DNA of 64,000 nucleotides from an uncultured Elusimicrobia bacterium (GCA_937916125.1 CALGGE010000066.1:27908-91907), one strand, 5' to 3'. Positions 16,340-64,000 are shown, numbered from the stretch's first letter. Translations and numbers: made by a program. The notes: generated by a model from the letters alone, not told the origin.

Positions 16340-16373
16340 ATTTTCTTCTCCAATAAAAAAACTTGTATTGTTT

Positions 16374-20500: not shown

Positions 20501-22110
20501 ATCTTTCAACCAATTGCGTTCTTTATAAGGGTATCTTATAATCGTTCCGTCAGATCTCATATAGTTGTGTTTATTCTGTCTGTTTACGGAAAACTTGGAC
20601 GGGAACAATCCGTAAAAAGGAATATCCGTATATAAAAATGTTGCAGATGTCATAATATCCGTAAACAAACTTTGAGACTCTTCCGACATAAAAAATGCGG
20701 AATCCTGTTCATCCAGCAGGGACATATCCAAGCATACATTTCGGTTCAACAATCCGTTACTTTCAAGAAACTCTTTAAAAGCTTTTGCATTTATTTCTTT
20801 ATTGGAAATAAAACTCTTAAATTTTGATATATCAGCATAAAAAACATTATTGCTATTGTAAATAAGTTCCGAACGTTCCTCAATTTTTTCAACATCAGAC
20901 CACTTTGTATATTTACCGTAAAAAACAATAACGGGATAAGTGTTGTCCCGGTTCCAATCTCTTTCAGAAGCCAAGAAAATTTTTCCTTTATTCAGTACGG
21001 ACACAAGTTCGTTTTTTTTCTTATCTGCAGAAGAAAAATCGGTTTTTAGAACTTTATATATTTTAATTATACCGTTTTCTCTTACAACTTCAAAGTCTCC
21101 CTCTGCCTGAATATCAATATCAAGCTCACCGATATCCGTCATATCAATATCTTTAACCGTAACGGATGTTTTATCGGAACAATTTATTTTAAAAATACTG
21201 CCATCAGGTATATAAACATTATTCAATGTTATTGTACCGTGCAGAGAAACTTCGGCATTTTGTTCGATGACGGTATCAACAAATACAACCTTTTCCAAAT
21301 CAGTATCTTTCGTATCGGCACCGTTATTTACCAGACCTTTCTTTTTTACTTCTTTAGTGTAAGCAGCTCCCCCGCCCGGAACGGCACCGACAACAAACAT
21401 CATCGGAAGCATTAAAACCATCTTCGTAAACAGCGACAAATTTCTATGTAAACGTTTTATTCTTCCCGGCTTTTGGGAACCCGTACTATTATCGACAAAT
21501 TCTTCTTCCCGTAAATTTGTTATTTCGTTTCTGTTATTGATTTCCTTTACGGTATTTTTCGACACATAAAACAGACGTTCTTTATTCTCAGACAAGAACG
21601 TCAACAAAAATCCTTTTTCGACAACTTCAATATTTTTCAGAACGGTATCATCGTCTAAACCTTTGGCATTAAAAATATCGGAAATATATTTTTGAACGAC
21701 AGACACATTTTCTTGTACCGTTTCAATATTCTTGTAACGGTTAAAAAGTTCACTGAGCAAATCATAATCCAAAAAGCCGACTGCTATAACCTTTGTAGGA
21801 TCATCCCAACTTTCGTTCATCAAAGAACTTCTTATAAATTTCTGATACGTATTGTTCAATATTGAAAGCTGTCTCATATAATCTTCATAAAATTTACTCT
21901 TACTTTCAATAACATCAACAGATTTTACGTTAGGCATAATAACGGCATAATTGATATCAAGTCCGTCCATAAGTTGTTTCATTCCGCGACTGTGATATCC
22001 TCCGGTTATTATGATATCTACAGGCTGATCCGTAGTTTTTAATATTTCTTCAAAAGACATTCTGTTATTATTTTTTATAACGGCTCTGTTTGCCGATTCT
22101 TCTTTATTTA

Positions 22111-29200: not shown

Positions 29201-32200
29201 AAATCAAGTATGGCATCTATTTGTTCAACGACGATTTTATATCTTTCAACTTTTTGTTCGGGCAAATTCGATAAATTTTTTATAATCTTTTTTACTTCGG
29301 CATAATCATATCCGTCAAGTAACGACAGTATTTCAATTATCCTGTCAACAACACTTTGTTCAACAACCGGAACGTCCGACATTTGTTCAATGTCTTTGGT
29401 TTGATAGAATTCATCACTTAATTGTTCTTCTTCATTTTTATCATCTTTGCTGCCGGTTATAACGGACAACATATCATTAAACCGACCTCGTGTTAAAGCT
29501 CTTATATTATATATTGAATGTAAAACGGTTGTAACAATCGGTGCCAAAAGCATATACTGAGGGAAAATAAACGACAACACTATATAAATCCAAGTCAACG
29601 ATGTTGCCGGAGAAAGCAAATCTTTCCAATCTCTTTTTTGGGAACTTTTTGTAATTATATCGTTCAACGTATGTGCGTAAGCAAATCCGATTGTTCCGGT
29701 AAATGCGGTTACAATCGCAGGAATTATCGGAAAAGGAGTTGTAAATACAAACGTGGTCAGCAAAATAAAAGGTGCGGCTCTAAAAATACCTTCTTCAATT
29801 ACTGGAGCGACAACAATTGTATAAATTAATCTGACAACATCACTTGCGTTCTTAAAAAAATTTTTCGCTATTACCAAAGGTTGACTTTTAGGATAAATCC
29901 TTGTCGTTAAGAAATCCTTGTCTCCTGTAGAAGATACATATCCGCCTTTCAACGTAAAAGATGTCTTTATTTTAGCAAGTTCGCCGGCTTTATTTATTTC
30001 ATAAATTTTTTCGTTCAGCAGTCTTATAACTTCGGCAAGTTTTTCCTTTGCCTGAGGCGTATCCTGAAAAAGGGATTCATCAAAAATTCTTCCTATGGTC
30101 ATATGCACTATTTTCGGAACTCTGTAATTCGGATCAAGATTTTCAAAATCTTTACGCAAGTTCAACATTTGTGCAATCAAATCCGTATCGGTAATCGTAT
30201 AAATTAAAACACCGTCGGGCATAAGCTTCAATGTACCTGCAAGAGATGTTTTAATACTCGGAAAAGTTTCTCCCAAGTTTTGGGTTGCCGCAAAAATGGA
30301 ATGAGTTTTGTTTTGATAAAGGAAGGACTCATCCATTTGTTGCGGCGTTGCACCTGACGAGTCATAGCCCACCGTCATGTGCAGTTGTTTATAAGGCATT
30401 AAGGAGACGGCGTCTCCCGATATTTCGCTTAAAGGTTTAAGAATATACCTGTATAATTTTTTCCTTGCCGATGTTGCAGGTTCAAGCTCTAAGGACGGAG
30501 CTGCATATTTATTTGCTTTAATCCTTTTAATCATATTAACGGTTTTTTCGATATCAATATTCGCATATTCCTTAATTTCTCCGTCGGAATAAATATAATT
30601 TATCGTACTTTCGGTACCTTTGTTAGCGTTATCTCTGTATTTAACAACAAACTCCACATTGCCAGTTTTAACTTCCGAAGATAAAATTTGCCATTCCAAA
30701 ATTTCAACATTACCGTAAAAAGTATTTTGTTTATCAATAATTTTTTCCGCTATAATTTGATAAATTTCCCGCTTTAAATCTTCTTCGGAATAATTTTGAA
30801 AAGCCTCACTTTGTACGGCATAAAAAAAACCTTCCATTACTTTCCTAAAACTGACATTTAAAGGTTCTTGCGTCAACGGTTCTATGTTTATGGTATTTTC
30901 AAGTATTGAAGAATAATATAAAACATTGTCCGTATAAAGTTGTCTTGCCGCTTCGGTTGATTCCGTTACTTTCGGAGTTATTATTACGTAAGATACTTTC
31001 TTGTCCAGAAAAATTCTCTCCAGTCCTCTTGTATGAAATCCTCCTGTAACAACAAGCGATATTTTCCTTGAAGGAGTTTGCGTCGAAAAATCGGAAGATT
31101 GACGAATGGCAGAGAAAAAGATTTGATCTCTCAAAATATTGTTTCGGTGATACTTGGACAGCAAGTCATAATACGTATCCAAACTTTGTATCGGTTGACT
31201 CGGCAAATACGACGGCCAAGTTGTCTTGAATTTTTTGTACCCTTCTTCAAAATTATAATATTCATCCGAAGAAATTTCTGCGGTAAAATAATTTCTTATT
31301 ACGGGAACGAACTCTGCAAGAAAATTAACTTCTTTTTCGTATTTTGTTCTTCCCGCTTTTATGTAAAGTTCATTTATAAAATCTTCTTTTTCTTTTACAA
31401 GTTCTATCGGATTTATTATGTCGCTTACGGCAAGCGAAGCAAAAAAACTTTCAAGATTCTTAAGTTTTAAATTTTTGGTTATTTCAAATTTATTGTTAAG
31501 TTTTATTAAATCGTAAGAAATATTTTCAAAATCGGTAAATTTATTACTTCTTTTAAAAAGTTCGGAGTAGCCGTCATAGTCAAGCTTATTTTTAAGTGAT
31601 GAAACAAAGCGGGCAAATTCACCGGAGATTTTCCCGTTATTTATAACATCGGTTTTGTCAAACAATGAAATATACAAAGATAAATTTTTATATTTTTCAA
31701 CTGAAACATCAAGATCTTCGGCAAGCCTGATTAATTCATTATAAAAACTCTTCGTCTTAATTTTTTTATTATCATACAAACTTATAATTCGTTGTATCTT
31801 TCTCGCTTTAGGGCTTGCATAATCTTTCCTGACTGAATTTATCTCTTTTTCAATATTTTTGCATACGGCTTCAATCTCTGGAGAAAGTGTTATTATTTCT
31901 CCCAACAGTTTAATATTTTCTTTATATAAACTTTCATTTTCTATACCGGCGACAAAATTCTTCTTATTTTTTATCGTTGAATAATATTCCGTTCCGCTTA
32001 AATTACCGGAATTCAAAAGATTTTCTACGATTTTTACACCGAATTTATTATCTTTCAATTCCGAAAGCCACGAAGTATCGACGATATTAAATGCTCCTTC
32101 CAAATAAACCTTATCAAGTCCGTATTTTGTATCGAGATATTCCAATATCGAAAAGATTTTCTTCTGTGTTTCGGCGTGACAATGAAGATCCTGAATATTT

Positions 32201-32379
32201 ATGACAATGTCCCCGTCATCAAAAATTTTTGACGAAGTTATTTTTCCCAAAGATGAGGGTATGAATTGTTGCATACCGTCAGAGAAACGTGCAGGCACGG
32301 CAAAACCGCCCTTTGGAAACAGTGTAATAACCAAAGAAAACGAAATCATTAAAGAAACTATCTTTTTAATCATTTTCAT
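23287..32379 (-). CDS. giant membrane multidomain protein, paralog P3 (ChaN/TraB-like N-module, 2H phosphoesterase, CPBP intramembrane protease, phosphohistidine swivel domain, PPDK-type ATP-grasp, ILSAA tail)
   Basis: 3,030-aa uninterrupted ORF. Signal peptide: MKMIKKIVSLMISFSLVITLFPKGGFA. N-module motifs: INIQDLHCH (32176-32202) and VVTGGFH (31033-31053). 2H motifs: LHMTVGY (30364-30384) and VHMTIGR (30088-30108). CPBP motifs: EEGIFR (29779-29796), FAYAH and HSIYN (29506-29520). Swivel domain: TTSGGVLSHAAITTREYHTPSVI, with His at 25558-25560. ATP-grasp: FGSKTVELAKI...VRSSGVGEDSANNAFAGMGETVLNV...GLGEGIVSG (about 23700-24690). Confidence 0.85.
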   Translation of the reverse strand: MKMIKKIVSLMISFSLVITLFPKGGFAVPARFSDGMQQFIPSSLGKITSSKIFDDGDIVINIQDLHCHAETQKKIFSILEYLDTKYGLDKVYLEGAFNIVDTSWLSELKDNKFGVKIVENLLNSGNLSGTEYYSTIKNKKNFVAGIENESLYKENIKLLGEIITLSPEIEAVCKNIEKEINSVRKDYASPKARKIQRIISLYDNKKIKTKSFYNELIRLAEDLDVSVEKYKNLSLYISLFDKTDVINNGKISGEFARFVSSLKNKLDYDGYSELFKRSNKFTDFENISYDLIKLNNKFEITKNLKLKNLESFFASLAVSDIINPIELVKEKEDFINELYIKAGRTKYEKEVNFLAEFVPVIRNYFTAEISSDEYYNFEEGYKKFKTTWPSYLPSQPIQSLDTYYDLLSKYHRNNILRDQIFFSAIRQSSDFSTQTPSRKISLVVTGGFHTRGLERIFLDKKVSYVIITPKVTESTEAARQLYTDNVLYYSSILENTINIEPLTQEPLNVSFRKVMEGFFYAVQSEAFQNYSEEDLKREIYQIIAEKIIDKQNTFYGNVEILEWQILSSEVKTGNVEFVVKYRDNANKGTESTINYIYSDGEIKEYANIDIEKTVNMIKRIKANKYAAPSLELEPATSARKKLYRYILKPLSEISGDAVSLMPYKQLHMTVGYDSSGATPQQMDESFLYQNKTHSIFAATQNLGETFPSIKTSLAGTLKLMPDGVLIYTITDTDLIAQMLNLRKDFENLDPNYRVPKIVHMTIGRIFDESLFQDTPQAKEKLAEVIRLLNEKIYEINKAGELAKIKTSFTLKGGYVSSTGDKDFLTTRIYPKSQPLVIAKNFFKNASDVVRLIYTIVVAPVIEEGIFRAAPFILLTTFVFTTPFPIIPAIVTAFTGTIGFAYAHTLNDIITKSSQKRDWKDLLSPATSLTWIYIVLSFIFPQYMLLAPIVTTVLHSIYNIRALTRGRFNDMLSVITGSKDDKNEEEQLSDEFYQTKDIEQMSDVPVVEQSVVDRIIEILSLLDGYDYAEVKKIIKNLSNLPEQKVERYKIVVEQIDAILDLVKENNRHNYQPQYYFRDGDYNDVSTVYGKLKVFCEQNGIDNWGSFYMSDFLLFSLIPFIALEDVYKSNNSFFYHMVDSLFIHKGKLRDKYIVLADVSKFIGETYKINSDFIPYGINKLLSREFISKDEDIPYQIQNNLKDYDALKQYYFAVSDGKEVDKSLSESLSNNVRVFREKALPFTAEQDRERVSEILSNMEELAEKINDGNSILLETLLEELLKIILKQEEQKEDSITYFLPFIFDFTKVKKKTGTRTVKTMLDSLIKILFDSYDVNSDNEKFYGLLDGMMDISGKFYNSEDNDIKDFGTYICNGITERLLLVVYTPIAQNTLDENSLEYVSREKTFYNVFEKLSKKNPKNISVYSYMFANTGVEDPAKRNSWNDDTSTIYGPGLNRKTLQRFVDAVYKANIKNVSIPLPEKDSLISDVEDLAEIVVDNCTLFDLSSFCNDLLGKKENGRVLAISVIKKLLLILENKNIDNKTRRYVISELVNMASTELYISLQNYNLFDINRLNELCEENNLPYFLKPVSDAFVSEMRGQYRFSRLIKYLPKDMFTSGNIILQEPPILYTVSGTTNKQNKEVAIIRDKFNTLQSILNDNNLVLSLLDGLSASKNPEKDFAELVKILSKMIVSLSLINPEHGNYARTALNNILYNLSIRPEQDGELLFTTSLTKDMIKRNMALKQWNSEHIEEITEIHTLINAVHQTSISDFKETVKDIIEIGDKAIKTVVAVHRNPRISIGYSDTGGLDRTGVELYDLSENKLNPDILDFIGRLSQNKLPRQKTAEKHEYQIDDFICMDNLLVWTTRLFAHSVDIFMNFADTDKTITISYHESDKKTGNAERIRYFSTILEKFGFFVENDINRPAGNDAAYSLKATLSTDYGFNKDMDFIDIATKVVSLFSYSVMLDWDLDELSNRYSEDSYRRTFDSLVEKFMEGDIWYGYMPNGVTGWPENKITARPQRNSLDKNWLKQVLQSLDLIDDIPEEFGFRVTQNVLDDMFNNVIERSFAVGRIFLNENGILSRNKDYDVVSYLAEAVSDDEEAAINKSKLINLIPNTNFKFKTIGYIGDLLAVSGYMKLQNGDFLSVKGLTKPSIKRLKYSVVEYVSLSGRKSVTFEELYEILRNEGFDIPRQELLSPSEQDRISNLLHRQTQNLSSPELRAVPISAGNGTYVSGYVTFDKNNVDGNSIFVAPYTTPDDVERIKTAKAIITTSGGVLSHAAITTREYHTPSVIINGASWKDKGLNILCYYSSGNPFQLGNLSIRKVKSKDKILREGSIILLNGETGHILLFDDIEDSTLKLLQSYIEKDDAENIKDFLIKNSVAENIGRIVEYIYFQTIGDTRMAQTLDMLFAQDMPQTIKDKIKELNESYIQDKVKVMNEAVTNLETTANPNIAYSIVRTLLEKLEFIKSPEYRQELDMIRKEVFEISQNTKESLIVFLKVFLKECRTMLEKYEYLPEDLNEIVGMLQLANVNEMFIPETEEDAYLQELKTDTENVINLLKLRLYGTYNYGVYSPKGDILSFDDIYERDSYKFGSKTVELAKIHRLLEKEDNVVVPEGVGISYDVFVRFFDMLGQKQQFLMLSQSFKNAINNGEYQLAQNFAKIIISLIENSKNKIKETDSLRKELEDMVLKTLGDSKYSVRSSGVGEDSANNAFAGMGETVLNVDRGNLFDALLSCWESFYSERSIKYMINSGQIVSPAVLVQTMIDVDKSGVAFSRDKYGNTTIETLYGLGEGIVSGKLTPDTITVNMETGNVLEYSVATKDYKIVSTREGVKLTFVDKGAKERTLNYEEIKQLIKVLLLLEDDVFYAVDVEFGFKDGKLFILQRRPVTTNAVNEEDVSEENVITVQHDTKYEISLSAGNADSQQQAFIHLPNPLNDTQSIPVYLETREQKSARFIIPSEYEELLGFGVLENILVNRINKDRTVLAKLNGGIFNFKSGEIGLLPVTIKEFDTSSFGQSDGYIDNIKNILSAA

Positions 32380-46985: not shown

Positions 46986-49900
46986 TTACGCCGATGCTGC
47001 AATTGCATGTATGTTCGAAAGCTTCATCAACGCCGTAGGCATACGATCTCTTGCTGCTCCTCTTCCGTCCGCCAACAACGCTCCCAAATCTTTCATAAAG
47101 TCTTCTTTTACATACGATATCTTCTCGGTTACCGCTTTCTGCAGTTTAACTACATCTATCTCAAATGTCTCGTCTTCGTATTCTTTCTTGCCTACAACGC
47201 TGTCTTTTATCGCCGTCGTTACTACATTCTGATTGACTGCCTTGCTTATTACAAGTTTGCTCATTATGTCTTCCGGTCTTGTGCTTGCACTGTCTAACAA
47301 CGCAATCATTCCGTTATCTTTATTCGCCATTATCAACATATCTCTTACTACCGATAATATCTCTATCGATGCCTGTATATCGCTGCCGCTCACATCTTCC
47401 ATCGCTAATATTTCGCCCGCTCTCTGCGTGTATGCTTGTACTATATCCTGAACATTCCCATTCTTTACTTCCTCTATATTATTGAACCCTATCGCCTGTG
47501 CCATCTCGTTTGAGGTCCCGTATATCGCAAGAACCGCTGCTACCGTATCTTTTATCTCCTGAGGTTTGGTTACTCCGTTTACTACCGTACTCAATATCTC
47601 TCTTACAGCCTTATTCGATTTACCTTTTACTTCTTTCCTGTCTGTTCCCAATGCTTCACAAACTGCATTTATTGAAGATGTTATAGGTGCTAATCCTTTG
47701 TTCCTTGCTGATGTTTCAGGTACCATCACTATCCCCTCAAATCCCATCGCTTTAAATTCTTCCGGTGTTACGGATACCGTCCTGATATCAAATGTTCCGG
47801 ATTCTTTATCAAGTTCGCTGTATGATATCGCGTCTTTACTTATACTTTCTATATTTACAACGTGGTCCGTTCCAAGCAATCCTATCATTCCTTTCTTCGG
47901 AACTTTTACTTCCGTTATCTCTTCCGCATATACGGCTTTGGCTCTCGGCATTACGCTACCGAGTTCCTGTAACAAATCTCCTATCGTTACATCTATTACG
48001 GAACTTGTTCCCGCTACTTTCAGCTCTTCTATTGCCGTCGTGTAATCACTACCAGCAATATCTGTTACGGAAGAATCTATTCTTGCCGCAATAAAGTCTG
48101 CTATAGCATCGGTATTAAAGCCCATCGACGCCATTACAACTACCGCACAGTTGGATACTGCCGCCTCTATCGTTTCATTGTCTATACTGCCTTTTACTCT
48201 ATCGCTGACTTTTGTCGCTATCTCCGTATACGGATTTACTGTCTCGGAAACTTCTGCCTTCTCCGCTTCCTGCCGTGCAGGCTGAACCGCCGGCTGTTTC
48301 TTGCCTATCGCAAAACCTTTCGTTTCTACTTTTCTCGTCTCTCTGTTGAACGTTAATCCAAACGTTATATCGTTACCGTCGGATGCCTTGGTAAGTGCCG
48401 CTTCTACCTGTTTATTCGCTTCCTCAAAGTTCGTTACAAGTTTCTGCAATTGTCCTTGTGCAGCAAACATTTCTCTGAATTTTATCCTGTCGCCAAACGT
48501 TATCTTTTCGCCTTTATTCGATTTCGCTACCAAATCATTATATGCCGCTTTCTTCTCTTCGCTCATTCCATCATATATCGCAGATATCTTGCCTTCCTGT
48601 TTGGAATAGTTATCGTTTATGTCTCTTACCGCTTTTATCAATTTATTTACGCTTACTTTAGGACTCTGTTCCTGTATCAGTTCAAGCCCTGCAAGAACGT
48701 CTCCGCTAAACACTCTCTGCACTCTTTCGTCACTTGTATCCGTTACCGCACCTGCTTTAAATTCATTACATGCTGCAACATATTTCATATAACTGTCATA
48801 CGCAAACCATGTATCTCTTGCCATCTGTTTCGTTTCGTCAGTCGCACTGTCTCTGTTTATCTCAAGTATCTTATTCATTACTCTGTCCGTCGCTTCTTCT
48901 CCTATCATTGTAGCCATCAATCCTCTCGCTTCCGCGTAAGTAGGTGCTATTATCTCCATCGCTCTCTGTTTCTGCGACCAGACTTTCTTTTCATTTACTA
49001 CCGCATTATTTGCTTTCTGTAATGTCGCCTCTTCATTGGATTCCATTACATCATTCAAATTGCTCAATATCATTCCAACACTGTATCCGTCATTCTTCTT
49101 TGCTGCTTCTCTTAATATCTTGTTCTCTCTTACCGAATCTACCGATGTTATCTGTACTATATCTCTGTTGAAGAATTCCGAACTGAATCTTGATTTTCCA
49201 TCTCTGTGGGCAAATCTTCCATTTCCCTGCTCTGACTGCGTTGCATCCATCTTCTCAAAGTTTACTTTCCACATCGTCGCCTGTACTTTCGCTTCCCCTT
49301 CTATACCCTGTTTCGCTTTCAAGTTGTTTACTGCTCCGCCCATATCGCCCGGGTTCCATCCTCTTCCAAGCAAGCTCACATCTCCTACTATAAACGATAC
49401 TTCTCCCTTCTTCATTACATTCTTTAATACTTCCTGCAACACTTTCGTCTTCGTATCTATATCTATTTCCCCGAGTTTATCTACACTGTAATCGGATACC
49501 CCGTTTGCTGCCATAACTTCCGCTACCTGTGCATACTGATATCTCTTTCTATCCGAAAGTTTCGTCAACTCTCTGTCAAGTAAGTCTAACGACAAACTTA
49601 CTATGTCTTCGGATGATATTCCGTTCTTCTCCAATCCCTCTACCAACTGTGTCGTTACATCAAAGTTGGCCGTCATTATCAAATCTACTCCCGCAGTCCC
49701 CTGTCTGTTCAACTTCTGTCTGGATGTCGCTATTACTTCCGCTATATCTCCCTGTGTCTGTGTTAATGCCGTCGTTACTCCTACCTTCATACTGTCGGGC
49801 ATACTACCGCCTATCTCCTCATAATCCAAATCTTTTAACATTGTCCTTATTGATGCACTGAATGTCCCTGAGAAGCCTACCGACCAATCAAATGCCGCTA

Positions 49901-52900
49901 ACGCTTCTTTCGATGATATAAATGTCTCCAACGACGGTTTATTGATATTCTCACATCCTTCCATTAACTCTATAGTCCACATCCCCGGCATATTCAAATT
50001 CTTCATCGCTACTCCGTTATTGGTTATATATACCACCTTATCCTTTCCTTCGCCCTCAACTACATATGCCCCGGTCCCTACCGTCTCTTTCGCATTATAC
50101 AACGTCAACGCATCCATTCCGGTTACCAAGAACTCTCTTACTTCCGTCTTGGAATTGAATATGTCTCCGTATTGCTCATATATATCGTCTATTAATGTAT
50201 TTAGTGCCTTATCATACTGTTCCTGCGTTATTACGGGGGTCGCTATTTCTTCCTGCGCGTCTGCATCCTCTCCCGCATGTTTCGCTTTTACTTCTTTTAC
50301 AGACTCCCTTACATTACGTATCATATTGTCTCTGTAGCCTTCCTGCTCGTCTTCTGCCGCAACCGTCGTTATTATCGCTTCGTCTCCCTCTGATTCATTT
50401 ATCTTCCTTGTCCCCTTATCTCCTTCGCTAAATCTTGACATGTCTGCAATATCTATTTCTACATTATCTACCATAGCCGTCAGTTTGGTTCCCTCGCCCG
50501 TTAACCCTAACAGTCTCTGTCTTACTTCCAAGTTCCTTATTGATAAATACTGTTCTGTTACTATATCTTTTATCTGATGCTCGCTTAACCCTAATACCGC
50601 CATCGCCGCTTTTACCGTATCTCCCGAAAGAACCGTCGCCTGTATCGACTCGATATCTTTATTTTCTTCTGCTTCTTTGTATGCATCCGCTACCGCTGCA
50701 GATATCGCTCCATATGCTTCTCTTCTCTGCTCTATCTGCTGTCTGCCGCCCTTCTTGCCGAGTGCCTCTCTATCACCTTTGTATCTGTCTTCCGTTACTC
50801 CTAAATATGCATAGTCGGTTACCTCTATATTTGCTCCACTGAGCAATTTATCATAGTAGTCTACCATTCCATACTCTTTCGTATATTTCCCTGCTGCACT
50901 TGCTAATGCCGATGCCGGTATCGTTGCCGCATAGTCTAATTCGTCTCCTACCAATTGTGATATCCTGTCTATCGGCAAGTTTATTCTATCCAATCCTTGC
51001 CCTTTCTCTACCAACAATTTTATCGCCGCCGCACTGTCTTTGGCATCATTAAATTGTACTTTTACGGTCTTGGTCTTACCGTTACTTAATGTAGTTTGAT
51101 TAAGTTTTATTCCTGCTCCATCTAACAACTTCCTGTTATGTTCTACCTGATCTTTTATTTCCTGATTGGTCTCTTCCGCTCCGTATGATAACAAGCCTGC
51201 CATTGATTCCGAAAACAAACTTCCCCAACTGCTATACGTTCCGATTATTACTCCTGCACTGTCTAACTTTTCTCTCATCCCTTCTTTGTCTTCCGTGTTC
51301 GTTATCATCTCTACTTTCCCTAACGAATCTCCGAATACAAATTTAATATGATTATACAAATCTTCCGCATTTGAGTTCTCGTTCGTTAACCATGTTATAA
51401 ATTTGTTCTCCTTATTCTCTATGTTCGGATTTGCACTTAACAACAATACACTGAATAATCCGATTATCGATTTACCGCCTGCCGTCTGCAACTCTTGTGC
51501 GTATCCCGCCGATTTCTCTTTCCCCTCTCCGTCATTTTCTACCGTGGCTCGCAAAATGTCTCTGAACGCTTCTTTCTGCCCGTCTCTAAATCCTGACAAT
51601 GCAAGTACAGAGTATGGTACCTCTATATCCAAATTATATTTCTCCCTTATACCTTTTAATATCTCTCCTTCTTCATCTGTTATATCACCGTTAACAACAT
51701 CTATCAGTGTCTTATAATCTTCCTTCGCTTCTTCTTTGCCGCTTGCTACCATCACTCCCTCTACTGAACTCCTCATGTTGTCTCCAAGTATTGTCGCTAT
51801 CTCTTTGGCCGCTAAATTATATTTCAAATACTCCGCCATCTCTTTATCACTCATATTATCAATTTTCGCTAACTGTGCATCGGTTAAGAAGTATTCTGCC
51901 TCTACCGCATCCACTCTGCCGGATCTCTTATATTCTTTATTCTCCGCTCTTGCCGCAGCATATCCCGACAGATATTCTTCTACTACCGCTCTAATATCTT
52001 CTATCTTGTCTTCGCTAACATCATATTTCCCTGTTCTCAAATCGGAAATTATATCTTCAACACTTGCGGTAGGATTATCAATTTTCTCATCAACGCTCGT
52101 TCTTGTCGGCGTTGTCGATTTAGTAAGCATTGCATTAACTGCATCTGTTGCTTTATTGAGCCTATTTACTTGTTTTGGTATAGATTTATTAACTTTTCTT
52201 TGTTTTAATGCAGACACTAAATCCATTCCCGCGGCTATTAAATTACCTGCCGTACTTAATTGGATATCATCATCCTTTTTATTGACATTATCTTTATTCT
52301 CACTTAATTTATTTTGAAGAGCTACTATACCTGCCTTAGCTATATCTGCGACTACATTTACTGTCATAACTGCAAGAGCTTGTGGCAATGAAGTTTGAAC
52401 TTTCCAACTCGGAGCAGAACTGCCACCGGTATTAGCACCATAAGCAGCACCTACCAAACCAACTATAGGAGCTCTTAATAACATATACCCTGTAGTACCC
52501 TTCATAAAACTACCGAAATCTGATAATTTTTCTATCCCCTTTGCATGTGCTGCCGCAAATTGTTTTTCTTTTATTGAAAGTATTTCTTTTGCAGATAATG
52601 GTGTTGCATACAACTGTTCGCTCACAATAGTTTGCAGTTTATTAAATTCATTATATTGTTGGGCCAAACTCTCTGCCAAATCAACATTAATATTCGGCAT
52701 TGATGCTTGTATATTCTGAGCATTTACCTTACCTGTACTATCAACACCAAAAGTTTCAATCATTTTCATTATTACTGCATTAGGAACGGATGCACCAAGT
52801 TTTTCCATTGCAGAAACAACATTTTCATCATGGCGAGCATGCAAAATTTGTAATATTGTTTCCTTTCCGATTCCTGAAACATTTATTCCAAAAGAAGAAC

Positions 52901-55900
52901 TATAAGTATTGAAATCTATCAAATTATCCAATGAAACATTGTTGTTTAACAACCACTGTGCTATTTCGAATTTATCACCCGATGTCGCTCTATAAGTATC
53001 GGAAGCAGACCTACTTGAAGAAGTTTCCGTTACTATCGCAGGAGACAAATCCAAACCTAAAGTATCCCTAAGTAATAAATTTAATGCTTCGGCTAAATCA
53101 TCATCATCGTTGAGTTTGAGATAATAAGAAACCGACTGTTTAGCACTATTGGTTAAAACTCCACCTTCCAACAACATTCCATTATCTTGTAATCTTTGTT
53201 CTATATTTGAAATATCTTGACTACTTACACCATGTTCTGCTAATACAGCACCAAGTTCTGCCGTTGTCTTAGGCATATCCTTAAATTCTGTATCCATGCC
53301 ATAAGTTGCCATAACTCTATCACTATAACCAAACATTATCTCTGCTGCAGTCTGTAAACTATCAGCCGTAGTAATGAATCCTTCAGAAGAGCCTTGAGTT
53401 TGAGAAATACCATTCCATTGTTCATACAAAGCTTGAGCTTTTGCCCCTATTGCACTATCTGTTCCGAGTGTTGTTGCTATTCTTCTAAACGCATCTTTTG
53501 CCGTAGTTTCCAAGTTTCCTAATGCATCTCTCAACTGTTGCTCACCGCTAATAAGGTCTGTATTTGTACCTTCGATATTTAACCTTGAAGTTTGTTCCGC
53601 ATTCAATATATCCGATAATACATTATAAACAACTTGTCCTTCTTCCGTATTCATACCTGCTTCAACTATAAGGTTATTCAACTCTGCAGTTAAGAATTTA
53701 TCTTTTATGGTATCGACAAGTCCGAATACTAAAGATTGAGAAGCTTGATTATACAACATATATAATTTTGCCAATTGGAAATCACGAACATCAGCAGATA
53801 GTTTATCACTAATACTTCCGTCTGAATTAAATAAATTATTTAACAATCTTTGATCTTCCTGAGAAGGACTGGATTTTAATTGTTCATATATTCCTTTTGT
53901 GATAACTTCATTACCACTAATTTTTTCCATATAAGCAGATACTTCTGTCTGATTACCAAATACCGTTCTTGTGGCGGTTTCTCCGCTGTGTCTTGTGACT
54001 CTACCATAAACTTGAGTCAACAATGATGCCGACATCTGAGAACTGTCAACAAGTAAATCAAAATTACCTACATAATCAAGACCCATACCGGCTTTTTCAT
54101 TGCCGATTATTATCTTAGCATTTGCACCACTATCCTTTTCTCTGTTTATAATGTCATCTGTCTTTTCCGTATCGGTTTCTATATTTAATATTCTATAACG
54201 ATAATCCGTTCCATGCTCCGAGTCATATTTCGCTAATGCATCCCTTACCTGTTCTCTAACAGCAACATCCACAGAAATAATTACTTGGTTTCTTGCATTT
54301 TCACTATTTAAATTATTTATTATTCTATTAACTATATTATCAATTATTTGCTGTCTGTTTTCCGTCTGAACAAATAATACCTGATCGCCGGTAGCATTTT
54401 CCGTTACAACTTCAAAACGCTTTTCATCTCCATATTGTGCTATCTCCATACCAAATGAAGCAGCCATATCCTGGACATGAGATAACGTTCCCGACATACC
54501 GATATACTGTCCGTTACCAAAGAATAATCTGCTACCTGATGTTCCAAAATCAGTTTCACTTACTGAAACATTTTCTAAGGCTGCCTCATGATAATTTGTA
54601 TCTAAAACTTTTTCTACACTAAGATGTTGGTCTCTATTAAATATACCTTGTACTTCATTTGTCATTCTCGATGCAGCATATGCATAGGCCGCATCCTGGA
54701 ACACTCTTCCATTCTCCTTATTACCATTTGCAACAGGAACTATTTGATACGAGCCGTCTGCTTGTAATGCTAAAGCATAAGTATCTTTACCGTTTTGTTT
54801 TTCAAGTATTGCTTTAACACAAGAATCTATCCAAGTTCTGTTTATATTATTATCCCTAGCAAAAGCATCTAATTGTTCACTTAATTCGGTTGAAATACTT
54901 CCTTCTCCGGTATCTTGTGAAACTTTTATATCTCCGTTTCTTACAAGTTCTGCTGCTTTTGCATATGCAGTTAACAATCCGTCTGTCTGTTCTTTAGTCC
55001 ACTTATCCGTTATGTTATTTGCACCGTTGCTCAGTATAAACGATGTCTGGCTTTCCATAAACTTATGAACTTCATCTGCTATCGTTAATCTGTCAGTCTG
55101 AGCCTGGAAATCAGTTAAAATATTTTGTAATCTTGAATTACCTTGTGCAGCCTGCGAAGCAGCCGTTGTCCCCAAGAATCCCATCTGTTCGCCGGTCCAA
55201 ATTCTTAAACCGTCTTTATCATTCATGGCAGCTTCAAATTCTTCTACATTTACTCCCTGTTGTGCATTCTGTGCAAGTCTGTCCATATCATAAATATTAA
55301 CTTTTCCGCCGTTCTGATTGGCAAGTTGTATAAAGTCGCTTACGGATATTTCGTTCGCCTGTCCCGGATTCAAAGTTCCATTTAAATATTTCTGATATTC
55401 TTGAGCATTGGCAACAATTAAGTCCATATTTGTTTCGCCTCTTAAGCTTCTTGACAAAGCTACACCTGATGCTATTAAAGTTTTACCGAAACCGACACCG
55501 GCAAGCATTGCGATATTATTGCCTGTCATAGCATCGGTTATTGCTTGTTTTTGACCGGGTTTAAAGCCTAAAGATTGCGATCCGTCATCAGACATATAAA
55601 CTTTATTATCTTTTAATAATTGTTCTGCTTTATCAACAGAAGCTGCGGCATCAAATATATTTATCATTTCTTGTGTCAAATTAACATTCTGTAAATATTC
55701 ATAGGCACCAACAAAAACACTATCATTAAAGAAAGAACTTATTTCTCCAAAGTTGTTAAAGTTGTATTCTAAAACTCTATTCGTAACAAAACTTAAACCA
55801 TCATTTCCTGATACACTTTGAACAGCTGCTCGAACATCTCCTACAACTTTACTTGCAAGAGACACTCTCATATCAGCAGATTTAACTTTACCAAACAAAT

Positions 55901-58900
55901 CATTGATTTGAGCAGCTTTTGCTTGCTGTCTCGCAGCTTCCTGCTCAGCTTGAACTTCAGCAGTTGCTCCGGTATCCACTTTTCCATAACTATTGCTATC
56001 AAAGATATCATTTACATTTAATTTTGCCGTTTCTTGTGCTATCAATTCTGTCATAAATTTATCATCTTTATAAGTTTCCATTTGTGCATCAAGATAAAGC
56101 AATTTATCTTTTGTAGTTTCTTGATTGGTTAATTCATTTGTAATGTTGTTCATTTTCTGTGTGTTGGCAAGAACAACAGTCCCAAGTTCATGATACAAAG
56201 TCTCTGCTGCACCGGTCAAATTAACACCATTCTGAGACAAGACTTTCAAATTCAAGAATGTCGCAGATACATCACTATAACTTGAATTATTAATAGCCGA
56301 TGCAATATTTCCATTATTTGCAGAAATTACATTATTAATTCTATTAATAATATTCTGCGAAACATCGCCACCTTGTTTCGTTAATGTGTCCAAAGCCGCT
56401 AAGCTTGTAGCATTTGCAATAGAACCTAAACTTGCATTGTCGGCATTAGCCGTAAAATCGTTGAAATTAATTCTATTAATTACTTCACTAACGGTCGATG
56501 CAGTGAAAGGAATATTATTAGAAGCAACCTTATTATTTAAAATATTTCTGTTAACTATATTGTTCATACTTACTAATGCATTCCATGCATTTACGTCGCC
56601 ATTATTTATAGCTTGTGCCATGTTTGCAACACTAAATTTGCCATTGGCATCAGAGTATTGTCCTATCGTTGATAACAGTTGTACTTTTGCCGGAGTATTT
56701 AAGGAGACAGTATCACCGACAAAACGAGTCTTGAAGACATCCCATGTACTTAAATTTTGTTGTTGTGATAAACCATTATAAGCCGTAGCCGCACCATATA
56801 TCTGTTGAATACTCTTTACAAAATCTGCTGTTTGTGTATTTGCAGAAAAACCGGAACCCATCGCACCAATATATGCTAACATAATATTTTGAATATTCCC
56901 TGCATCAAAATTCATACCTGCTGTATTTGCGGAAAATGTTGCCATATTATTATTTAGCAATGTACTGAAAGACGTGGTATTTGTCATAGAGTAAACTTGA
57001 GCTATCGCACCAAGTGATGTCATAAAGTTTTGTAAAGATGATGTATCTGTTATATTGTCAGCAGAAAAAACAACATTTCCATTTTGAACAACATTGAACT
57101 TACCTGCATCAAATTGTACTTCCACACCATTAATGCCATTCATTGAAAGCATTCTGTTCATAGCATTCGTTGCAATTGAATTATTATTCTGAGAGTAACT
57201 TGTATTACTTACTGTCGTTGCATATGTTGTATTTGTATATACATTACCTACTCCGTCAGGAGACATAAACTCTACTAAAGATTCTGCAGCAGCATCACTT
57301 ACGCCTAATGGTTTTAGTATAAAACTCTTTATGGCACCTTCCTTAAACCATTCTTCAAAAGCACCTTCTCCTACTCTGCTTAGAGCTTTATAAATTCCGC
57401 TATTTTTGAATGACTCTAATACACTGTTTTTTGTAAAATTGGAAAGATTTTCTCCTAATTTTATAGTTCCTTCACCAAACGGAGTAGCACTAAAATTATC
57501 TTTTATGCTTGACAATTTTTTACCAAGTACAGAGCTTCCAAATCTTTCTCCTGCTCCGGAGAATAAACCTTTAACACCTTCAGCTAAACCTTCTGCCGTA
57601 GGCATACCTAAATACATTATCAAACCAAATCCTAAACTCTGTCCGGGATTAACAGCTAATAAATTTCCTTGTTTCCCGGTCTGTTGTATTTCGTTAAAAG
57701 CTCCTCCTAAGAAATTCGTTATTATATTTGAACCGAATGTGTTATATATCCATTTGTTTGCACCGTCACCAAGGAAATTGCCGGTAACAGAAGCTATTGC
57801 ATTCATACCGATATTTAATTCAAACATGGAATACATGTGGGCTGTCAGAGACTGTAATGTGGAACCCCATTGTGTTAAACCAAGTCCTCCTCCAAAAACC
57901 AAACTTTGTGCATGTCTTAAAGAACCTAATAAACCCGATTCTCCTTCGATTATTCCATTTTTCAAATAACCGGAATTCCCGATAAAACTGTTTCCTAAAT
58001 TTTCAAATTTATCAGACCAACTTAATGTTTCTGCAGTCGTTTTAACAGCCTTAGTCGCACTAACCTCTACAGCTTTTTCTATTGCATTTGTGGATAATCC
58101 GAAATTATCTAATGCAGAGTTTATATTATTAAGACCTTTTCCTTCCGCTGTTTTTAAGGCTTCTTGTAATTTATCAGATACTCCGTTCATACTCTTTGCA
58201 GCTAATGCTGCTTTTCTGACTGACGTCATTTCATCAAATACTTTTATTGCTGTTCTGGCAGAACTGAAACCTGTCGCCCCGGACTGCAATGCAAAAGACG
58301 TTGCCTTTGCTGCACTACCTATCTGCATCGGGAAGGCAATAGCAAGTCCGGTTGCTGCTAAATTCAACAAACCGCTAGGGACATCACCATTGCTAAAAGC
58401 ATAACTTGCATTCATTGCACCCTGACTTGCAAAGTATGCTGTTCCTAAAGCAGAGAGTGTCAATGAAATAGGATGTGATAGAGCCGTTGCCGCTGCCGTT
58501 CCTAAAACTGCACCTATACCGGCACTTGTTCCGCCCAAAGCAGGAACAAATGCTGCGGCACCCATACCACCGGTGGCAACAGTTACAGCTATTGCGGCAA
58601 TACCTGCCACACCAGCCCAACCGGCAGCTGTTCTATCTTGTTGTGTTATATTTACTACGTTTTTACTTGTTAACATTGTTGATGCTAATGTTAATGCTGC
58701 ATTGTCTGCTCCCCAACCATGCCATATACCTTCTACAGCTCCACCTATTGCCACAAATGTTCCGCCAATAGAATCCAACGTCCCGGCTATAAAATTCTTA
58801 TTTATGGTTAAATTAGATGCCTTAACATCTGTAGTTCCTTGCCAGAAACCAAAATCTAATTCATTATAATCACTACCATACCAAGTAGTTCCATTTTTAA

Positions 58901-61900
58901 ATTTTCCACCGGCAAAATCTTGTTCACCGAAAGCTACAGCACCATTATATTTTACGGTGCCTGCACTAACACTCGGAGCAGTATATTTTACAGGTGCACT
59001 CCCGTCAAAGCTATAAGTCATGGAAATTGTATTATTGTTAGAATCTGTTAAAGTTCTGGTAACACTTACTTTACCATCTCCGGTTAAAGGATGAACTGTA
59101 GTACTAAACCAATCTTCCGTTTCCTGCATTCTTTGAAGAACTAATGATCCTAAGCTTGCAACAGAAGTGTCGCTTTCACAGAAAACTTTTACACTACCGT
59201 CAACATTAACATCATAGCTAATTCCTATATTTTGATAAACTCTATTGTTGGACAATTCCTGAACACCTTGTGTATTGAAATGAGAATCGTACAAAGAAAC
59301 TTCAGTACCACCCAAGAATTGAGAGAATGAAGTTCCCAAAGTTTCTGCATTTATACTGACTTCAAACGTAGTAGTATTTGAATTGGTATTAAACTTACTT
59401 ATAGTTATATTTTCACTATCAATGGTAGCATTAAGTTCGTATTTAACGTTATTGGTACTTTTTTTACTCTCTTCCGGAGGATTTTTATCGGTTTTTGCGT
59501 TATAGCCCATTGTTATGTTATCACCAAAATTTTTCAATGTTAAATCTGCAATCAAACTTACTCCATCTGAAGATAAGCTCAAATCTTTTAACGCAAATGT
59601 CGATGATATATCTCTGCCGTTAGCATCTTTTGCTCCAAGATTTCTGGTAAATCCAATATCTTCCAATGATAAATTTCTCGTATCTTTTCTATCATCTTCC
59701 GGGAAAAATATTGCATATCTATTATGATTATTTCTTGCTTCCACAAACTGTTCATAGGTCATTAAATTATTTGCATTAAGGTATCTATCAAGATCTTCAT
59801 CCGTAACATATCCTTGTCCATTTTTTCCATTAGAATCTGAAACATACTCTCTTGTATTAGAGTCCCATCCTGTCAGTCCAAAGAGAAATTCAATTCTTTG
59901 ATTATCTATTAAGTACTGTTTAACATTTTCTTCCGTTACTTCGTAATCAAAACCTTCAGCATTGTTGGCAGCCACGCTTGTCCCGTTATCAACCATAGCA
60001 AGGTCTCCTAAATATCTGCGGTAAGCCTGTTCATCACTTAAACCATCATAAGCAGATAATAGAGGTGTGTCAAATCTCTCTCCACCCATTTGTTCATGTA
60101 TCAATGCATTGTATTCATCGTTGGTCATAGTATAACTAACTTTAACATCTGAAGGATCTATTTCTTTACCATTAGCATTAAGTAAGCCATCTAAAACAAC
60201 TCCACCTTCTTCAGTATAAGAGATTCTTGCTCTATCGTATACTTGTCCGGCATATTCATATTTATCGCAACCCCAAATAAGACTTCCTTCCATATGTAAA
60301 GTACCATCTTCTTCCCCGTATGAAATTTTCAATCCTGTAGATTTTTCATCTGTAGTTGCTCCTTCAAAAAGATAATGAGAGTCTAATACTAAATCACCCG
60401 AACTATATTTCTTAACACCGGAATTTCTATCATCAATATTAATATAATATGCATCATATATAGTTTTACCTGTAGCACTATCAGTCTCACCGGTATCTTT
60501 AAAGAAAGAATATACATGCTCACCATTCAATGTTGATTTCGTCCATAATTTTGTTACAAGTTTTGCATTATCAGCACCTGCAGTTTGAGTAATCTTACCA
60601 TTGGCACCAACTGTTGTTACAGAATAACCTTTTAAATAAACTTGTCCATCGATAACATTTCCATTATCATCTTTTTCAGGATCGACGAAGAAATCGGTTA
60701 TACATGTCGTTGTGTAACTTCCTTCCATAGTCTGCTTGAATTCACCATCTTTAAAAGATATTATTATCTTGGTATCTTTATTATAAACAGTCTCTAATAT
60801 TCCACCCAAACCATCTGTTGTTCTTTCCTTTGTCCCTGCCGTAACTGTCTTATAATATCCAAAAGTTTCTCCGTATTCCTGAAAATCTCCGTTCTTATCA
60901 AGTATTACAGTACTATTGTTAAGATATTTGTATCCATTAGGAATATATCCGTCCAACACATCACCCGAGTATATTCTTGTAGTTAGTCCCGTTTCCTCAT
61001 CCGTTACATCTTTCCAACTGCTATTAAATTTATAATTATTATATGAACCGTTTATAGTCGTTTTACCATTAACTATATCTATTGTTTCCGTATAACTTCC
61101 TATATCATATTTGTTACCTTGAACATCTATATCCGTACCGTAACTTACTGTTCTTGTATATCCAAAAACATCTCCGTACCCAACAAATTCTCCTGAACTA
61201 TTAAACTTTACACTACTACCTTCAAGATATTGATACCCCGTAGGTACATAATTTTCATCCAAGGCATCACCGGAGTACGTTCTTATTGTTTCACCGGTCT
61301 CATTATTCTTTACATCTGTCCAACTACTATTAAATCTACTGCCATTATTCATTCCTGTAACTTTTGTAGTTATACTTGAAGGTTCGATATCCGCGTCGCC
61401 ATCATAATTATATTTTGTCGTTTCCGTATGATAATTATTCTCATCTATTGTTGTCGTTCTTGTCGTATCTATCACTCTCTGCTTATTCGTGTCATATCTC
61501 ATCTCATAACTCTCGTTACTGCCAAGTACGTCTTTACTTTCTACCTTACCGTCTTGTCCGAAATTTATTATGCTGTTCAATGTCCCGTCTTCACCTTGGT
61601 CGCTTCCTTCATATGTCCTGGTCAATACTCCGTCTTTGGTTACATCCGTATATTTACTGAATAAACCAGAATATTCTCCGGTTCCGGTTATTGTCGTAAT
61701 TTCTAAGCCGTTAGTTTTATAATCTGTATGTTCCGTATAAGTTGTGTTGGTATTTGCATCTATTGTAGTGACTTTATCTGTGTATATTAATTCTTGATTA
61801 CTATTGTAAGTTTCGCTGTAACCTGTTAAATCCCTCACTGTTCCATCTTCAGATTTATATTGCAATCCATCACTATAGGATAAAGTTCTATTTCCTTCAC

Positions 61901-64000
61901 TATCGATTGTAGTTATTATTTCGCCTGAAGTTTCCCAAGTATTTCCTTGCTCATCGGTTCCTTCTGATACCACCACTTTATATGATAAATTATCAATACC
62001 TTCTTGTACAAACTCACCATTTGCATCTCTTGTAAATCTTGCATCACCTGATAAGTACTCTATACCATCAGACTCTATTCCTGTTAAATCAAGAGAGAAT
62101 GATCCATCTTCATTCTGTACAAAATCATATCCGTCTATTGTCAAAGTCTTTGTCAAAGTATCTACTTTATACTCGTGGCCATCTATAGTACCACTTTCCC
62201 CTAATATACTATTCATCAAATCTATTGACAAATCGGTAAGTCCGTTCATACTATCAAATAACATTGACAAAGCAGGACTATCAACTACAGCATCTAACAT
62301 TCTTGAAATATCCGTAACATTGGGAGTATTAGCATCTATATTAGGAACTACAACTTCTTGCAAGGCAATAAGTCCGGAAGATGTCATTTGATAACTGTGA
62401 TCATCCATATGTTGTTCCAATAAGTATGAACCTTTGGCATATGTACTTCCTTCAGCGTAAACGGATGTTGCAGATACACCTGAAGACAATGATTTTGAAC
62501 TTACATTCTCAAATGTTCCTGAAACCGTTAATGTATCTCCGTTATCATATACAAAACCATCAAATGTAGAAGTTGATACTTTTGTTTGCTGTTCCTGTTG
62601 ATCCTGCTGTTGTCCTTCTTCCTCAGATGTCTGCTCACTTTCAATAGGATTTTCCATGTCATTTATAACAGCATCTTTAACCGTCAAATTACCCGACAAT
62701 ATAGCATCCGTAATTTTTCCCGTATCATCAATATTAAAGGTTATTACAGAACCGGCATTCCAGCTTGCATTATTACTGCTTGCTTTAATCTCTTGTCCTG
62801 CATCAGTAATATAGTTAACAGATAGACTTTGTGCAAGTATTGCATTATCATCCTTATTCCCGCTAAGTTTTAAACCTTTCGCAACGGTTGTTACATTACC
62901 GTCACCGTCAACCATATCAAAATTATTTTTCGTCTGAACATATACTGCATTTTCTGCATTAGCACTGTTGTAATTGTATAATCCGCTCCAGAAACCTACA
63001 ACATCTCCCTTATTGAAAGAAGTTTTTAATGAATCTAAATTATTTGTAAATTCAAAATTGTCTTTATCCAATATTTCAATATTGGCATTGTTAATAGTAG
63101 CCGTTGCCCTAAAACCAAGGACACCGTTTTCATCCGTCCCTAATTCCAAAACCGTACCTTTAGCAACATTAACTCTGCCGACACCATCCGCAGATGTTAC
63201 GGACCCGTTTTCTGTAGCCGTATATTTAATATTTCCGTTAACGGAAGTGTATCCTATCAAAGCATCATCCAAGTTACCTACAGTTCCGGACATAGATATC
63301 CCTGTAAATACAAGATCAGCTGAAGTGTTTCTCGTAAAACCTTTCAACTGTGTCTGTTCCATATTCTTCAATATACTATTCAAAGTGTTATTTGTATCAT
63401 CACCGTAATATTCATATGCCGATGTTGCATCAGTTATGGTCCATGCACCATTTTGGAATGTAAGGCTACCATCTGAAACGGTAAAATGTATATCTCCTTT
63501 TTCCGTTCTTATGGTATAGTTGGAACCTTTAGTTAATTTACTGTTTTCAGACGCAATTGCACCAAGCAGTGAAGATGACGTTAACGAAGAAGATGTTGCA
63601 TTACGGAATATACCGTCAATATTAACTTTACTATAGTTATCATTATTATCATCTACACTTCCTTCAAAACTCATCCGTGTTTCAGAAGCCGGGCTTCCGT
63701 CTGTCGGATTTCCATTTATTGCAATTGTTTCATTTTGTACAGTTCCGGCGAATTTAAAAGATCCCGATATTTCGGCAGCTATAATTCCGCCCGAATCATC
63801 TTTATAGAAATCTATTGTACTTGCTCCTGCAAGCCAATTTGCAGTATAACTATCATCAACTCCGCTTATATGTGCAGAAATTTCATTAGTTGCTATTACT
63901 TTATTCCCTTCAGCATCACCAACAAGTTTTAAAGCACCTGCAGATATTGTTGTGCCGTCAGTTACTTTTATATCGGATTTATTTGTTACACATAAACCGT
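46986..64000 (-). CDS. giant multidomain membrane protein (more than 5,670 aa; N-terminus outside the window) with beta-rich repeats, Gly/Ala-rich hydrophobic segments, two SecA-like ATPase modules and an AIAASA tail
   Basis: The track ORF 46986-63674 starts at an internal ATG. I translated 63675-64000 in the same frame and found no stop (..[34 protein letters not shown]...ETRMSFEG). Motif coordinates are given in the findings. Confidence 0.85.
   Translation of the reverse strand, partial: [5670 protein letters not shown]

Follow-up and report, generated by a model that had tools for sequence, protein, structure and literature searches.

Why should the codon usage of a single open reading frame (ORF) change abruptly along its length? 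This question is raised by a 64,000-nucleotide (nt) stretch of DNA from an uncultured Elusimicrobia bacterium (GCA_937916125.1 CALGGE010000066.1:27908-91907), the whole of which is called the window here. A giant ORF on the minus strand is open from window position 46,986 to past 64,000. The first-pass annotation had described a sharp compositional break inside this ORF and proposed that the part beyond it was a separately evolved module fused onto the gene. In the source assembly, which is metagenomic (1.75 Mb, 111 contigs, 99% complete), the ORF has 10,611 codons (~1.2 MDa) in contig C66, and the window contains the last 5,670 of them. The odd part is therefore the last 16% of the gene and not the "3' third" for which it had been taken.

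That the break is a junction of two building blocks in a mosaic gene is well supported by sequence comparison. The fuller reading that we favour, and to which we give slightly better than even chances, is that the conserved terminal module beyond this junction is also under maintained selection of the kind seen in tuf. The features on which the argument depends are listed below, where T4 is T at 4-fold sites, T3, G3 and GC3 are third-codon-position values, and lengths of proteins are in amino acids (aa).

46,986 to ~78,800 (C66 74,893-106,728; past the window end), minus strand in the window: complete giant ORF, an open frame in the contig
46,986-46,988, minus strand: stop codon of the giant ORF, whose start lies ~14.8 kb past the window end
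46,989-48,014, minus strand: C-terminal ~340-aa domain (full-length residues ~10,270-10,611), ending ...MPTALMKLSNIHAIAASA; T4 0.15
48,192-52,070, minus strand: ATPase-2 sub-module (full-length ~8,918-10,210); T4 0.11, 4-fold G 0.33
51,926-52,163, minus strand: support for the codon-usage change point (T3 best at 52,016, G3 best at 51,971), where the variable upstream part gives way to the conserved C module
52,062-52,121, minus strand: Thr/Pro/Ser-rich linker KSTTPTRTSVDEKIDNPTAS; strong homology to relatives starts directly after it (SVEDIISDLRTGKYD...)
52,164-64,000, minus strand: upstream part of the ORF in the window (full-length codons ~4,941-8,890)
52,317-52,487, minus strand: hydrophobic hairpin of two Gly/Ala-rich helices (YMLLRAPIVGLVGAAYGANTGG ... 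LPQALAVMTVNVVADIAKAGIVAL); T4 0.44
52,482-56,504, minus strand: ATPase-1 module with the motifs GVGFGKT, DEVH and QVYGRVTRH; T4 0.43

The C module as a whole, ~1,680 codons, consists of the ATPase-2 unit and the ~340-aa terminal domain with its small-residue tail. Directly downstream of it lie ordinary housekeeping genes of normal composition.

Position and synonymous nature of the step

The step was located by maximum likelihood on the third-position T (or G) indicator along the minus-strand ORF. For T3 the best change point follows window-ORF codon 3994 (window 52,016; log-likelihood gain 138.7) and for G3 it follows codon 4009 (window 51,971; gain 102.9), with joint support at 51,926-52,163. 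The largest gain in 500 permutations was 10.0, and no further change point was found in the upstream 3,990 window codons, where the best gain was 2.5. A sharp break had thus been recognized correctly, but its placing at ~52.3 kb was ~300 nt too far upstream. The hydrophobic stretch with which it had been equated is not its site either: the step lies 100-150 codons downstream of the hairpin, at or just after the Thr/Pro/Ser linker, and the codon usage of the hairpin is of the upstream type.

The same step is seen in the base composition. Plus-strand purine and G+C are 0.339 and 0.422 in 46,986-52,030, 0.426 and 0.358 in 52,031-64,000, and 0.463 and 0.350 in the housekeeping genes at 32.6-46.6 kb. 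In the sliding profile, plus-strand G+C rises from ~0.35 to 0.40-0.45 below ~52.3 kb, and the plus-strand GC and AT skews both drop to between -0.3 and -0.4, which bears out the earlier description of a C+T-rich plus strand from 46,986 to ~52.3 kb. On the coding strand of the module, G greatly exceeds C (GC skew 0.26-0.43). T3 and G3 pass from 0.41 and 0.13 upstream of the step to 0.19 and 0.29 downstream. The genome ORF means are 0.35 (standard deviation (sd) 0.047) for T3 and 0.16 (sd 0.037) for G3, and the module is atypical for its host on both. The upstream part in the window is also displaced, with T3 of 0.41 against the mean of 0.35, less third-position C and G+C, and a GC3 of 0.23 where the housekeeping genes next to it have 0.26-0.35. 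The two sides deviate from the genome mean in opposite directions, and it is this that makes the step so large in the window.

The change is synonymous, since codon positions 1 and 2 hardly shift: GC1 and GC2 are unchanged, whereas third positions gain G+C (GC3 0.23 to 0.40) and purine (0.49 to 0.68). The codon tables of nearly every amino acid differ across the step (p = 1e-5 to 1e-28). From upstream to downstream, GCG rises from 7% to 47%, CAG from 36% to 79%, GAG from 15% to 42% and ATA from 61% to 86%; GCT falls from 32% to 5%, GGT from 46% to 11%, ACT from 27% to 5% and GTT from 49% to 17%. The rule followed in the module is a purine at position 3 and, where this is impossible, C over T. 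In its 3- and 4-fold boxes, NNA and NNG stand in place of NNT and NNC; Glu, Lys and Gln take G-ending over A-ending codons, and the 2-fold pyrimidine boxes C over T. The check on synonymous usage, in which amino-acid composition combined with identical codon usage was the opposing outcome, thus came out overwhelmingly in favour of a synonymous step.

Several causes that might produce such usage were tried and rejected. Amino-acid composition does not account for it, as the content of E/K/D/A is unrelated to T4 genome-wide (r = -0.02 in 4,165 counting windows) and usage differs for each amino acid; the C-terminal part, which had been called E/K/D/A-rich, is indeed enriched in these residues, only modestly so (0.34 vs 0.26). 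Dinucleotide context fails because T3 in the module is low to the same degree whichever base follows, unlike the genome as a whole, in which T3 depends strongly on the next base. Selection for off-frame "ambush" stops would bring no net gain, with +1-frame stops up and +2-frame stops down. GC-biased gene conversion is rejected, since C is not raised and in relatives T is replaced chiefly by A. An unusual tRNA set was also rejected: the 39 tRNA genes detected with ARAGORN are unremarkable, with GNN, UNN and CNN anticodons in most 4-fold boxes.

Overlapping genes in the antisense or other frames were considered because about 30 stacked antisense ORFs had been listed in the first-pass annotation. 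The stack exists on the plus strand between 47,007 and 52,317, and counted from start to stop at >=60 aa it comprises 21 ORFs; the next plus-strand ORF of this kind appears only at 54,437. Stop-to-stop antisense frames of >=60 aa number 34, against 26.7 +/- 3.1 in shuffles of synonymous codons, and the longest frame is not unusual against these shuffles. The stack is mostly a by-product of codon usage. With no long frame and only a small excess of ORFs, overlapping genes were rejected as the cause.

The terminal module and its relatives

Viewed over its full length, the gene is divided into zones, which are given here by full-length codon.

Codons 1-690: T4 0.07, bias equal to that of the 3' part
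Codons 690-1,200: T4 0.22, intermediate
Codons 1,200-5,000: T4 0.32, like the genome
Codons 5,000-8,930: T4 0.41, third positions T-richer and C- and G+C-poorer than the genome mean
Codons 8,935-end: T4 0.12, beyond the step under study

The full-length change points lie at codon 690 (677-717) and codon 8,935 (8,923-8,966). The step at codon ~690 is a mirror image of the other and closes a conserved N-terminal module, the start of which is signal-anchor-like (MNIIKKSV...FVSLFVVLCFVINIANLPVYA). Homology has nearly the same limits. The relatives compared here are species representatives of Endomicrobiales, and contig ends truncate several of their giant ORFs. With the three closest giants (~60% identity), similarity starts at residue 8,879-8,930 and continues to the stop, and on the N side BLAST similarity to another family member spans residues 35-691. 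Since the C-side change point at 8,935 and the N-side change point at 690 match these limits, the compositional zones correspond to modules. Between codons ~4,400 and 5,000, near window position ~63,800 and upstream of it, the third positions shift again, more softly, losing C (0.15-0.23 to 0.08-0.14) and gaining T (0.35 to 0.41-0.46), which suggests another cassette border.

Homologues of the C module occupy the same C-terminal position in 21/61 relatives, with a best identity of 59-72%. The upstream parts of the closest relatives' giants are unrelated to ours or share scattered cassettes only. The giants are mosaics in which ATPase-2, the ~340-aa terminal domain, ATPase-1 and various repeats occur in differing combinations. 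The ATPase-1 unit is one of these family cassettes, 30-56% identical in the giant ORFs of 10/61 relatives. No other piece of the module is as widespread as the C-terminal domain, which also closes giant ORFs without ATPase-2. In several relatives it follows ATPase-1 after a few hundred to ~1,300 codons without an ATPase-2 unit, and for this reason ATPase-2 looks like an insertion between the two or an alternative there.

The bias recurs in these relatives. In seven of their giant ORFs the T3 change point lies <=290 codons from the start of the homologous module, and T4 drops from 0.34-0.44 ahead of the module to 0.20-0.31 inside it, a weaker depletion than here. Nine genomes supplied 14 more giant ORFs, and in all 14 of them T4 is lower in the last 330 codons than in the preceding ~950 (sign test p = 6e-5). 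At conserved 4-fold codons, third-position identity to the relatives is 0.41-0.48, where 0.33-0.40 is expected from composition. Synonymous sites between the copies are thus almost saturated, yet every copy is T-poor. Near-saturation together with T-depletion in the relatives indicates that the bias has been maintained and is no relic of a recent transfer.

A search was also made for homologues in which the two parts are separate genes, as the idea of a fusion had called for; none was found in the genomes or metagenomes examined. Each genome match either forms part of an open frame of 1,250-9,003 aa or is truncated where its contig ends. A profile search of 1.84 billion representative proteins returned 38 matches, all of them giants with the module near the C-terminus or fragments. 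Among proteins of 924-2,940 aa, a word-indexed search gave three candidates for a stand-alone gene, and these were rejected: P0002 follows a 10-N scaffold gap, with a frame that continues on both sides; P0003 lies between a frame overlap and an in-frame stop on a short scaffold; and the third comes from a 3.9-kb contig. All other short matches are truncated at the end of a contig or of a gene call. At the junction there were 3 promoter-like sites against 4.7 +/- 2.0 expected, none of them well placed, and no in-frame start with a Shine-Dalgarno-like motif was present here or conserved across six related loci. Phage and plasmid collections contained no match to the module. The claim of a separately evolved module therefore holds in part: the module has a distribution of its own and a boundary at 8,879-8,930, but a signature of recent or foreign fusion is missing.

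The first-pass annotation had called the larger part of the C module "SecA-like module 2". It carries a Walker-A-like AGGKS (51,468-51,482), a Walker-B-like DELD (50,934-50,945) and an LLGRGWNPG motif (49,347-49,373); T54-A-G-G-K58 and D234-E235-x-D237 are invariant in 9 aligned ATPase-2 sequences. The Pfam DEAD profile scored 16.4-19.9 bits, below its cut-off of 26, the SecA family was not matched, and PDB sequence and profile searches gave nothing relevant. For a low-confidence AF2 model (mean pLDDT 56.7) the top Foldseek matches were SecA structures (1tf5, E = 3e-3) with TM scores of 0.14-0.16, and no match reached E <= 1e-3. The Walker motifs are thus conserved and the profile matches weak and sub-threshold; the label of a SecA-like or SF2-type ATPase is reasonable but unproven. 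AGGKS, which is Walker-A-like, the DELD box and a GRG motif link ATPase-2 to the SecA/SF2 DEAD motors, from which it differs in its very large insertions and in its position near the C-terminal end of giant membrane proteins.

The C-terminal ~340-aa domain is conserved and unannotated, and its AF2 model is of low confidence. Its motifs are GVT.P, RD, SKAVNQNV and F.ID..KLQ, with the tail MP..LM.LSDIHAVAAAA. An alignment of 17 sequences, drawn from 9 genomes, gives the window protein 29-65% identity to the rest, and every invariant residue is present in it. The His of GHV.TVT is nearly invariant in this alignment, and the Cys of INAVCEALG (window 48,147-48,149) occurs only in the three closest sequences. 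Nearly all ORFs of >1,400 codons in the genome end in ...[IL]L[SA]A[AS]-COOH (LLSAA, LLAAA, ILSAS), including those at window 23,287-32,379, 17,579-22,060 and 9,977-16,381; the giant of the window ends in ...HAIAASA. These small-residue tails recall the ssrA/ClpX-type "LAA" C-terminal degron or a sorting signal. A tmRNA gene, sought for comparison of its tag with the Ala-rich tails, was not detected by ARAGORN in the assembly. At the other end, many giant ORFs of this genome start with a signal anchor and a "...GKITS..VINIQDLH" domain.

Resemblance to tuf and the alternatives

Usage of this kind is rare in the genome. We scored counting windows for T4 < 0.15 combined with G-ending E/K/Q codons > 0.33. 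Outside the giant gene 17/4,165 had such usage, 9 of them in a second giant ORF and 4 in tuf; inside the giant gene there were 19, every one in codons 0-600 or 9,000-10,575. The second giant ORF (C108:3,634-10,995, minus strand; 2,454 codons) is T3-poor and G3-rich in its first ~800 and last ~500 codons and ordinary in the middle, and it has no detectable sequence similarity to the giant of the window. Across giant genes the bias amplitudes of the N-end and C-end covary, as a qualitative impression, and like amplitude at both ends fits a gene-level variable such as expression. No paralogous copy of the module was found in the same genome. Low T4 (only 0.13) was also seen in an IS3-type transposase and a phage-tail-collar-like gene (C26:27,753-28,772; C68:7,808-8,668).

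The closest likeness is to tuf (C74:28,394-29,611), which has a T4 of 0.08 next to fusA and S10/spc ribosomal protein (r-protein) genes at 0.35-0.52. When codon log-ratios versus the genome were compared with those of tuf, the C module correlated at r = 0.68 (p = 3e-9), the N module at 0.52 and each of the two middle zones at 0.02; the best of 690 other genes reached 0.53. tuf is T4-poor in this genome and in 17/17 Endomicrobiales relatives (loci L027-L043), at 0.08-0.21 with one outlier at 0.35, and its neighbours fusA, nusG and the r-protein genes in these genomes are not (0.25-0.6). The bias of tuf is unusually isolated among its neighbours. G-ending codons in tuf stand at 0.23 here against 0.04-0.13 in congeners, and in the C module at 0.32 against 0.11-0.15 in the congeners' modules. 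That both are G-rich relative to congeners indicates a force that operates in each genome on its own. In the module, codons end in a purine at 88% of invariant and 75% of variable residues (Fisher p = 0.023). Since tuf, which is the most highly expressed gene, has a bias of this same kind, selection acting on translation or on the mRNA is the most likely cause, rather than the composition of a foreign donor.

From these comparisons we infer the action of selection, the age polarity of the modules and the selective agent, and the course of events would be as follows. The C-terminal module closes giant membrane-protein ORFs across Endomicrobiales, and the upstream part is lineage-specific material drawn from other cassettes. 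The bias would be actively kept in this lineage through selection on translation or mRNA, and the N-terminal ~690 codons form a second conserved module that shares it. Both terminal modules may be old residents at selection-mutation equilibrium, with a middle that would have been exchanged in later, would be too young to have adapted and would keep a drift-type, T-rich usage. The upstream stretch, and not the 3' module, is then more likely the newcomer. The total mass investment in the giants might make selection per codon as effective as in tuf; it could be unusually strong because a failure of translation wastes a product of ~1.2 MDa.

A number of observations weigh against this account. The r-protein and fusA genes hardly share the tuf-type bias (r = 0.26 for the S10/spc genes and 0.22 for fusA), and for this reason the axis is not the ordinary one of expression. 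A protein of 10.6k aa cannot plausibly be made in the molar amounts of EF-Tu. For Ile, the module uses ATA at 86-89%, whereas tuf raises ATC; the ATA preference suggests a rule that acts on nucleotides (a third-position purine) and not tRNA adaptation. ATPase-1 is conserved in other giants and yet T-rich, so that conservation alone fails to predict the bias. Most other giant ORFs of the genome lack biased ends, and the copy of one congener (G005) has only a slight drop in T. A model based on the cost of failure predicts a rising gradient rather than steps or a biased 5' end.

Other explanations must be weighed against the same evidence. Recent horizontal acquisition, or a recombinational swap by which the 3' module retains the composition of a donor, would fit a step placed at a linker where homology and cassettes also have their boundary, in a family of giants that are clearly mosaic, and in a genome whose IS3-type transposase and tail-collar-like gene share the low T4. 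We nevertheless consider it unlikely. The nearest copies are only 59-72% identical, with near-saturated synonymous sites at which a donor signature should have ameliorated, and the copy of each relative departs in the same direction from the rest of the gene that holds it. In none of the relatives sampled does genome-wide pyrimidine-ending 4-fold usage come near 0.22, no phage or plasmid matches the module, and normal housekeeping genes flank it downstream; the same bias is present in the N-terminal module, the C108 giant gene and tuf. An old transfer of the module is conceivable. The C module might instead be a separate expression unit, made far more often than the middle, as the N module might be through early termination. 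The tuf-like codon preferences, the sharp boundary at the linker and the zone of intermediate bias after the N module (codons 600-1,200) agree with this proposal. However, the boundary has no promoter-like excess and no conserved Shine-Dalgarno sequence or start, no stand-alone version of the gene was found, and the expression required would exceed that of ribosomal proteins; the proposal appears to us quite improbable.

The pattern might also be a matter of RNA architecture, which we regard as rather unlikely, though less so than a separate expression unit. The 5' and 3' provinces, poor in U and loaded with purines, would then shield both ends of the 32-kb transcript or improve their use. They might do so by offering fewer sites to Rho or RNases, by forming less secondary structure or by reducing spurious promoters, independently of tRNA matching. 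This explanation accommodates the rule of third-position purines, or else C over T, which extends to Ile (ATA 86-89%), as well as the coding-strand G excess (GC skew 0.26-0.43) and the affected ends, on both sides, of several giant genes. Predicted folding of the module is -24.2 kcal per 150 nt, compared with -26.5 +/- 0.8 when it is recoded with genome-average codons, despite the higher G+C, and tuf likewise folds more weakly than its recoded versions. The folding effect is, however, small and unspecific, as the middle also differs from recoded controls; most other giant ORFs of the genome have no such ends, and no mechanism is at hand for provinces of 2-5 kb rather than whole transcripts. 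On another reading, to which we attach a low likelihood, though a higher one than to transfer, the giant genes of the clade carry selected "codon provinces", with terminal modules purine-loaded and U-poor to the level of tuf. These would be an RNA- or translation-level adaptation to the 32-kb message or the 1.2-MDa product, such as Rho- or RNase-proof ends or a selection for accuracy that scales with the mass at stake, and the exchangeable middle would escape it. An artefact or by-product, be it an assembly chimera at ~52 kb, an amino-acid effect or an antisense constraint, is extremely improbable. The assembly is a metagenome of 111 contigs and the region is richer in E/K/D/A with many antisense ORFs, but the frame is continuous, an upstream ORF leads into the module in at least 7 independent assemblies, positions 1 and 2 are flat, amino acids fail to predict T4, and antisense ORFs number 34 against 26.7 +/- 3.1 expected from codon usage alone, the longest of them unremarkable.

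Comparison with known systems

Intragenic compositional steps are normally read as scars of transfer. In this gene that reading could be tested and for the most part did not hold: what is atypical is the block conserved across the family, and its bias is re-created in every lineage and matches the most translationally selected gene. If selection is the true cause, synonymous sites would be shaped module by module within one frame, and giant genes would be a natural setting in which the effects of mutation bias, of tRNA matching and of constraints on the mRNA (Rho loading, RNase attack, folding) could be told apart. Finders of genomic islands or horizontal gene transfer that depend on composition would mislabel such modules as foreign. 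Codon provinces, if true, would be a new, module-resolved form of codon-usage selection.

Position-dependent codon bias has reportedly been explained by nonsense or processivity errors, in work by Eyre-Walker in 1996 and by Gilchrist and co-workers, with a gradual rise along the gene. Our gene agrees with this model in having its strongest bias at the 3' end, where abortion costs most, and departs from it in its steps, its unbiased middle of 8,000 codons and its equally biased 5' module. Purine loading of mRNA-synonymous strands (Szybalski's rule, Forsdyke) is described as a genome- or gene-wide trend. Here, too, the coding strand has an excess of A+G that comes mostly from third positions, with a depletion of antisense stop codons in consequence, but it is switched on and off at module borders within one gene.

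Akashi-type accuracy selection belongs to the codon optimisation that is linked to expression, conservation and ancestry. In our gene, too, the conserved, older blocks are nearer to the codons of the most expressed gene, and invariant residues favour these codons. The effect in our gene is far larger and step-like (T4 from 0.41 to 0.12 in one ORF), and both the r-protein genes and the conserved ATPase-1 cassette are without this bias. Lopez et al. (2020, mBio, PMC7374057) deal with codon optimisation in conserved versus variable domains and in core versus singleton genes.

The nearest parallel in architecture is that of giant multi-module genes with provinces of GC or codon usage. A text search of the giant-gene survey by West-Roberts et al. 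(2023, bioRxiv 10.1101/2023.11.21.568195) gave no match to "codon usage". Our gene has in common with these genes an uninterrupted ORF, sharp steps at linkers and shuffled modules. It differs in that the step is a strand-specific, synonymous shift from T to purines and not a difference in G+C that a donor could explain, and in that it recurs in the homologous modules of many relatives and resembles the usage of tuf.

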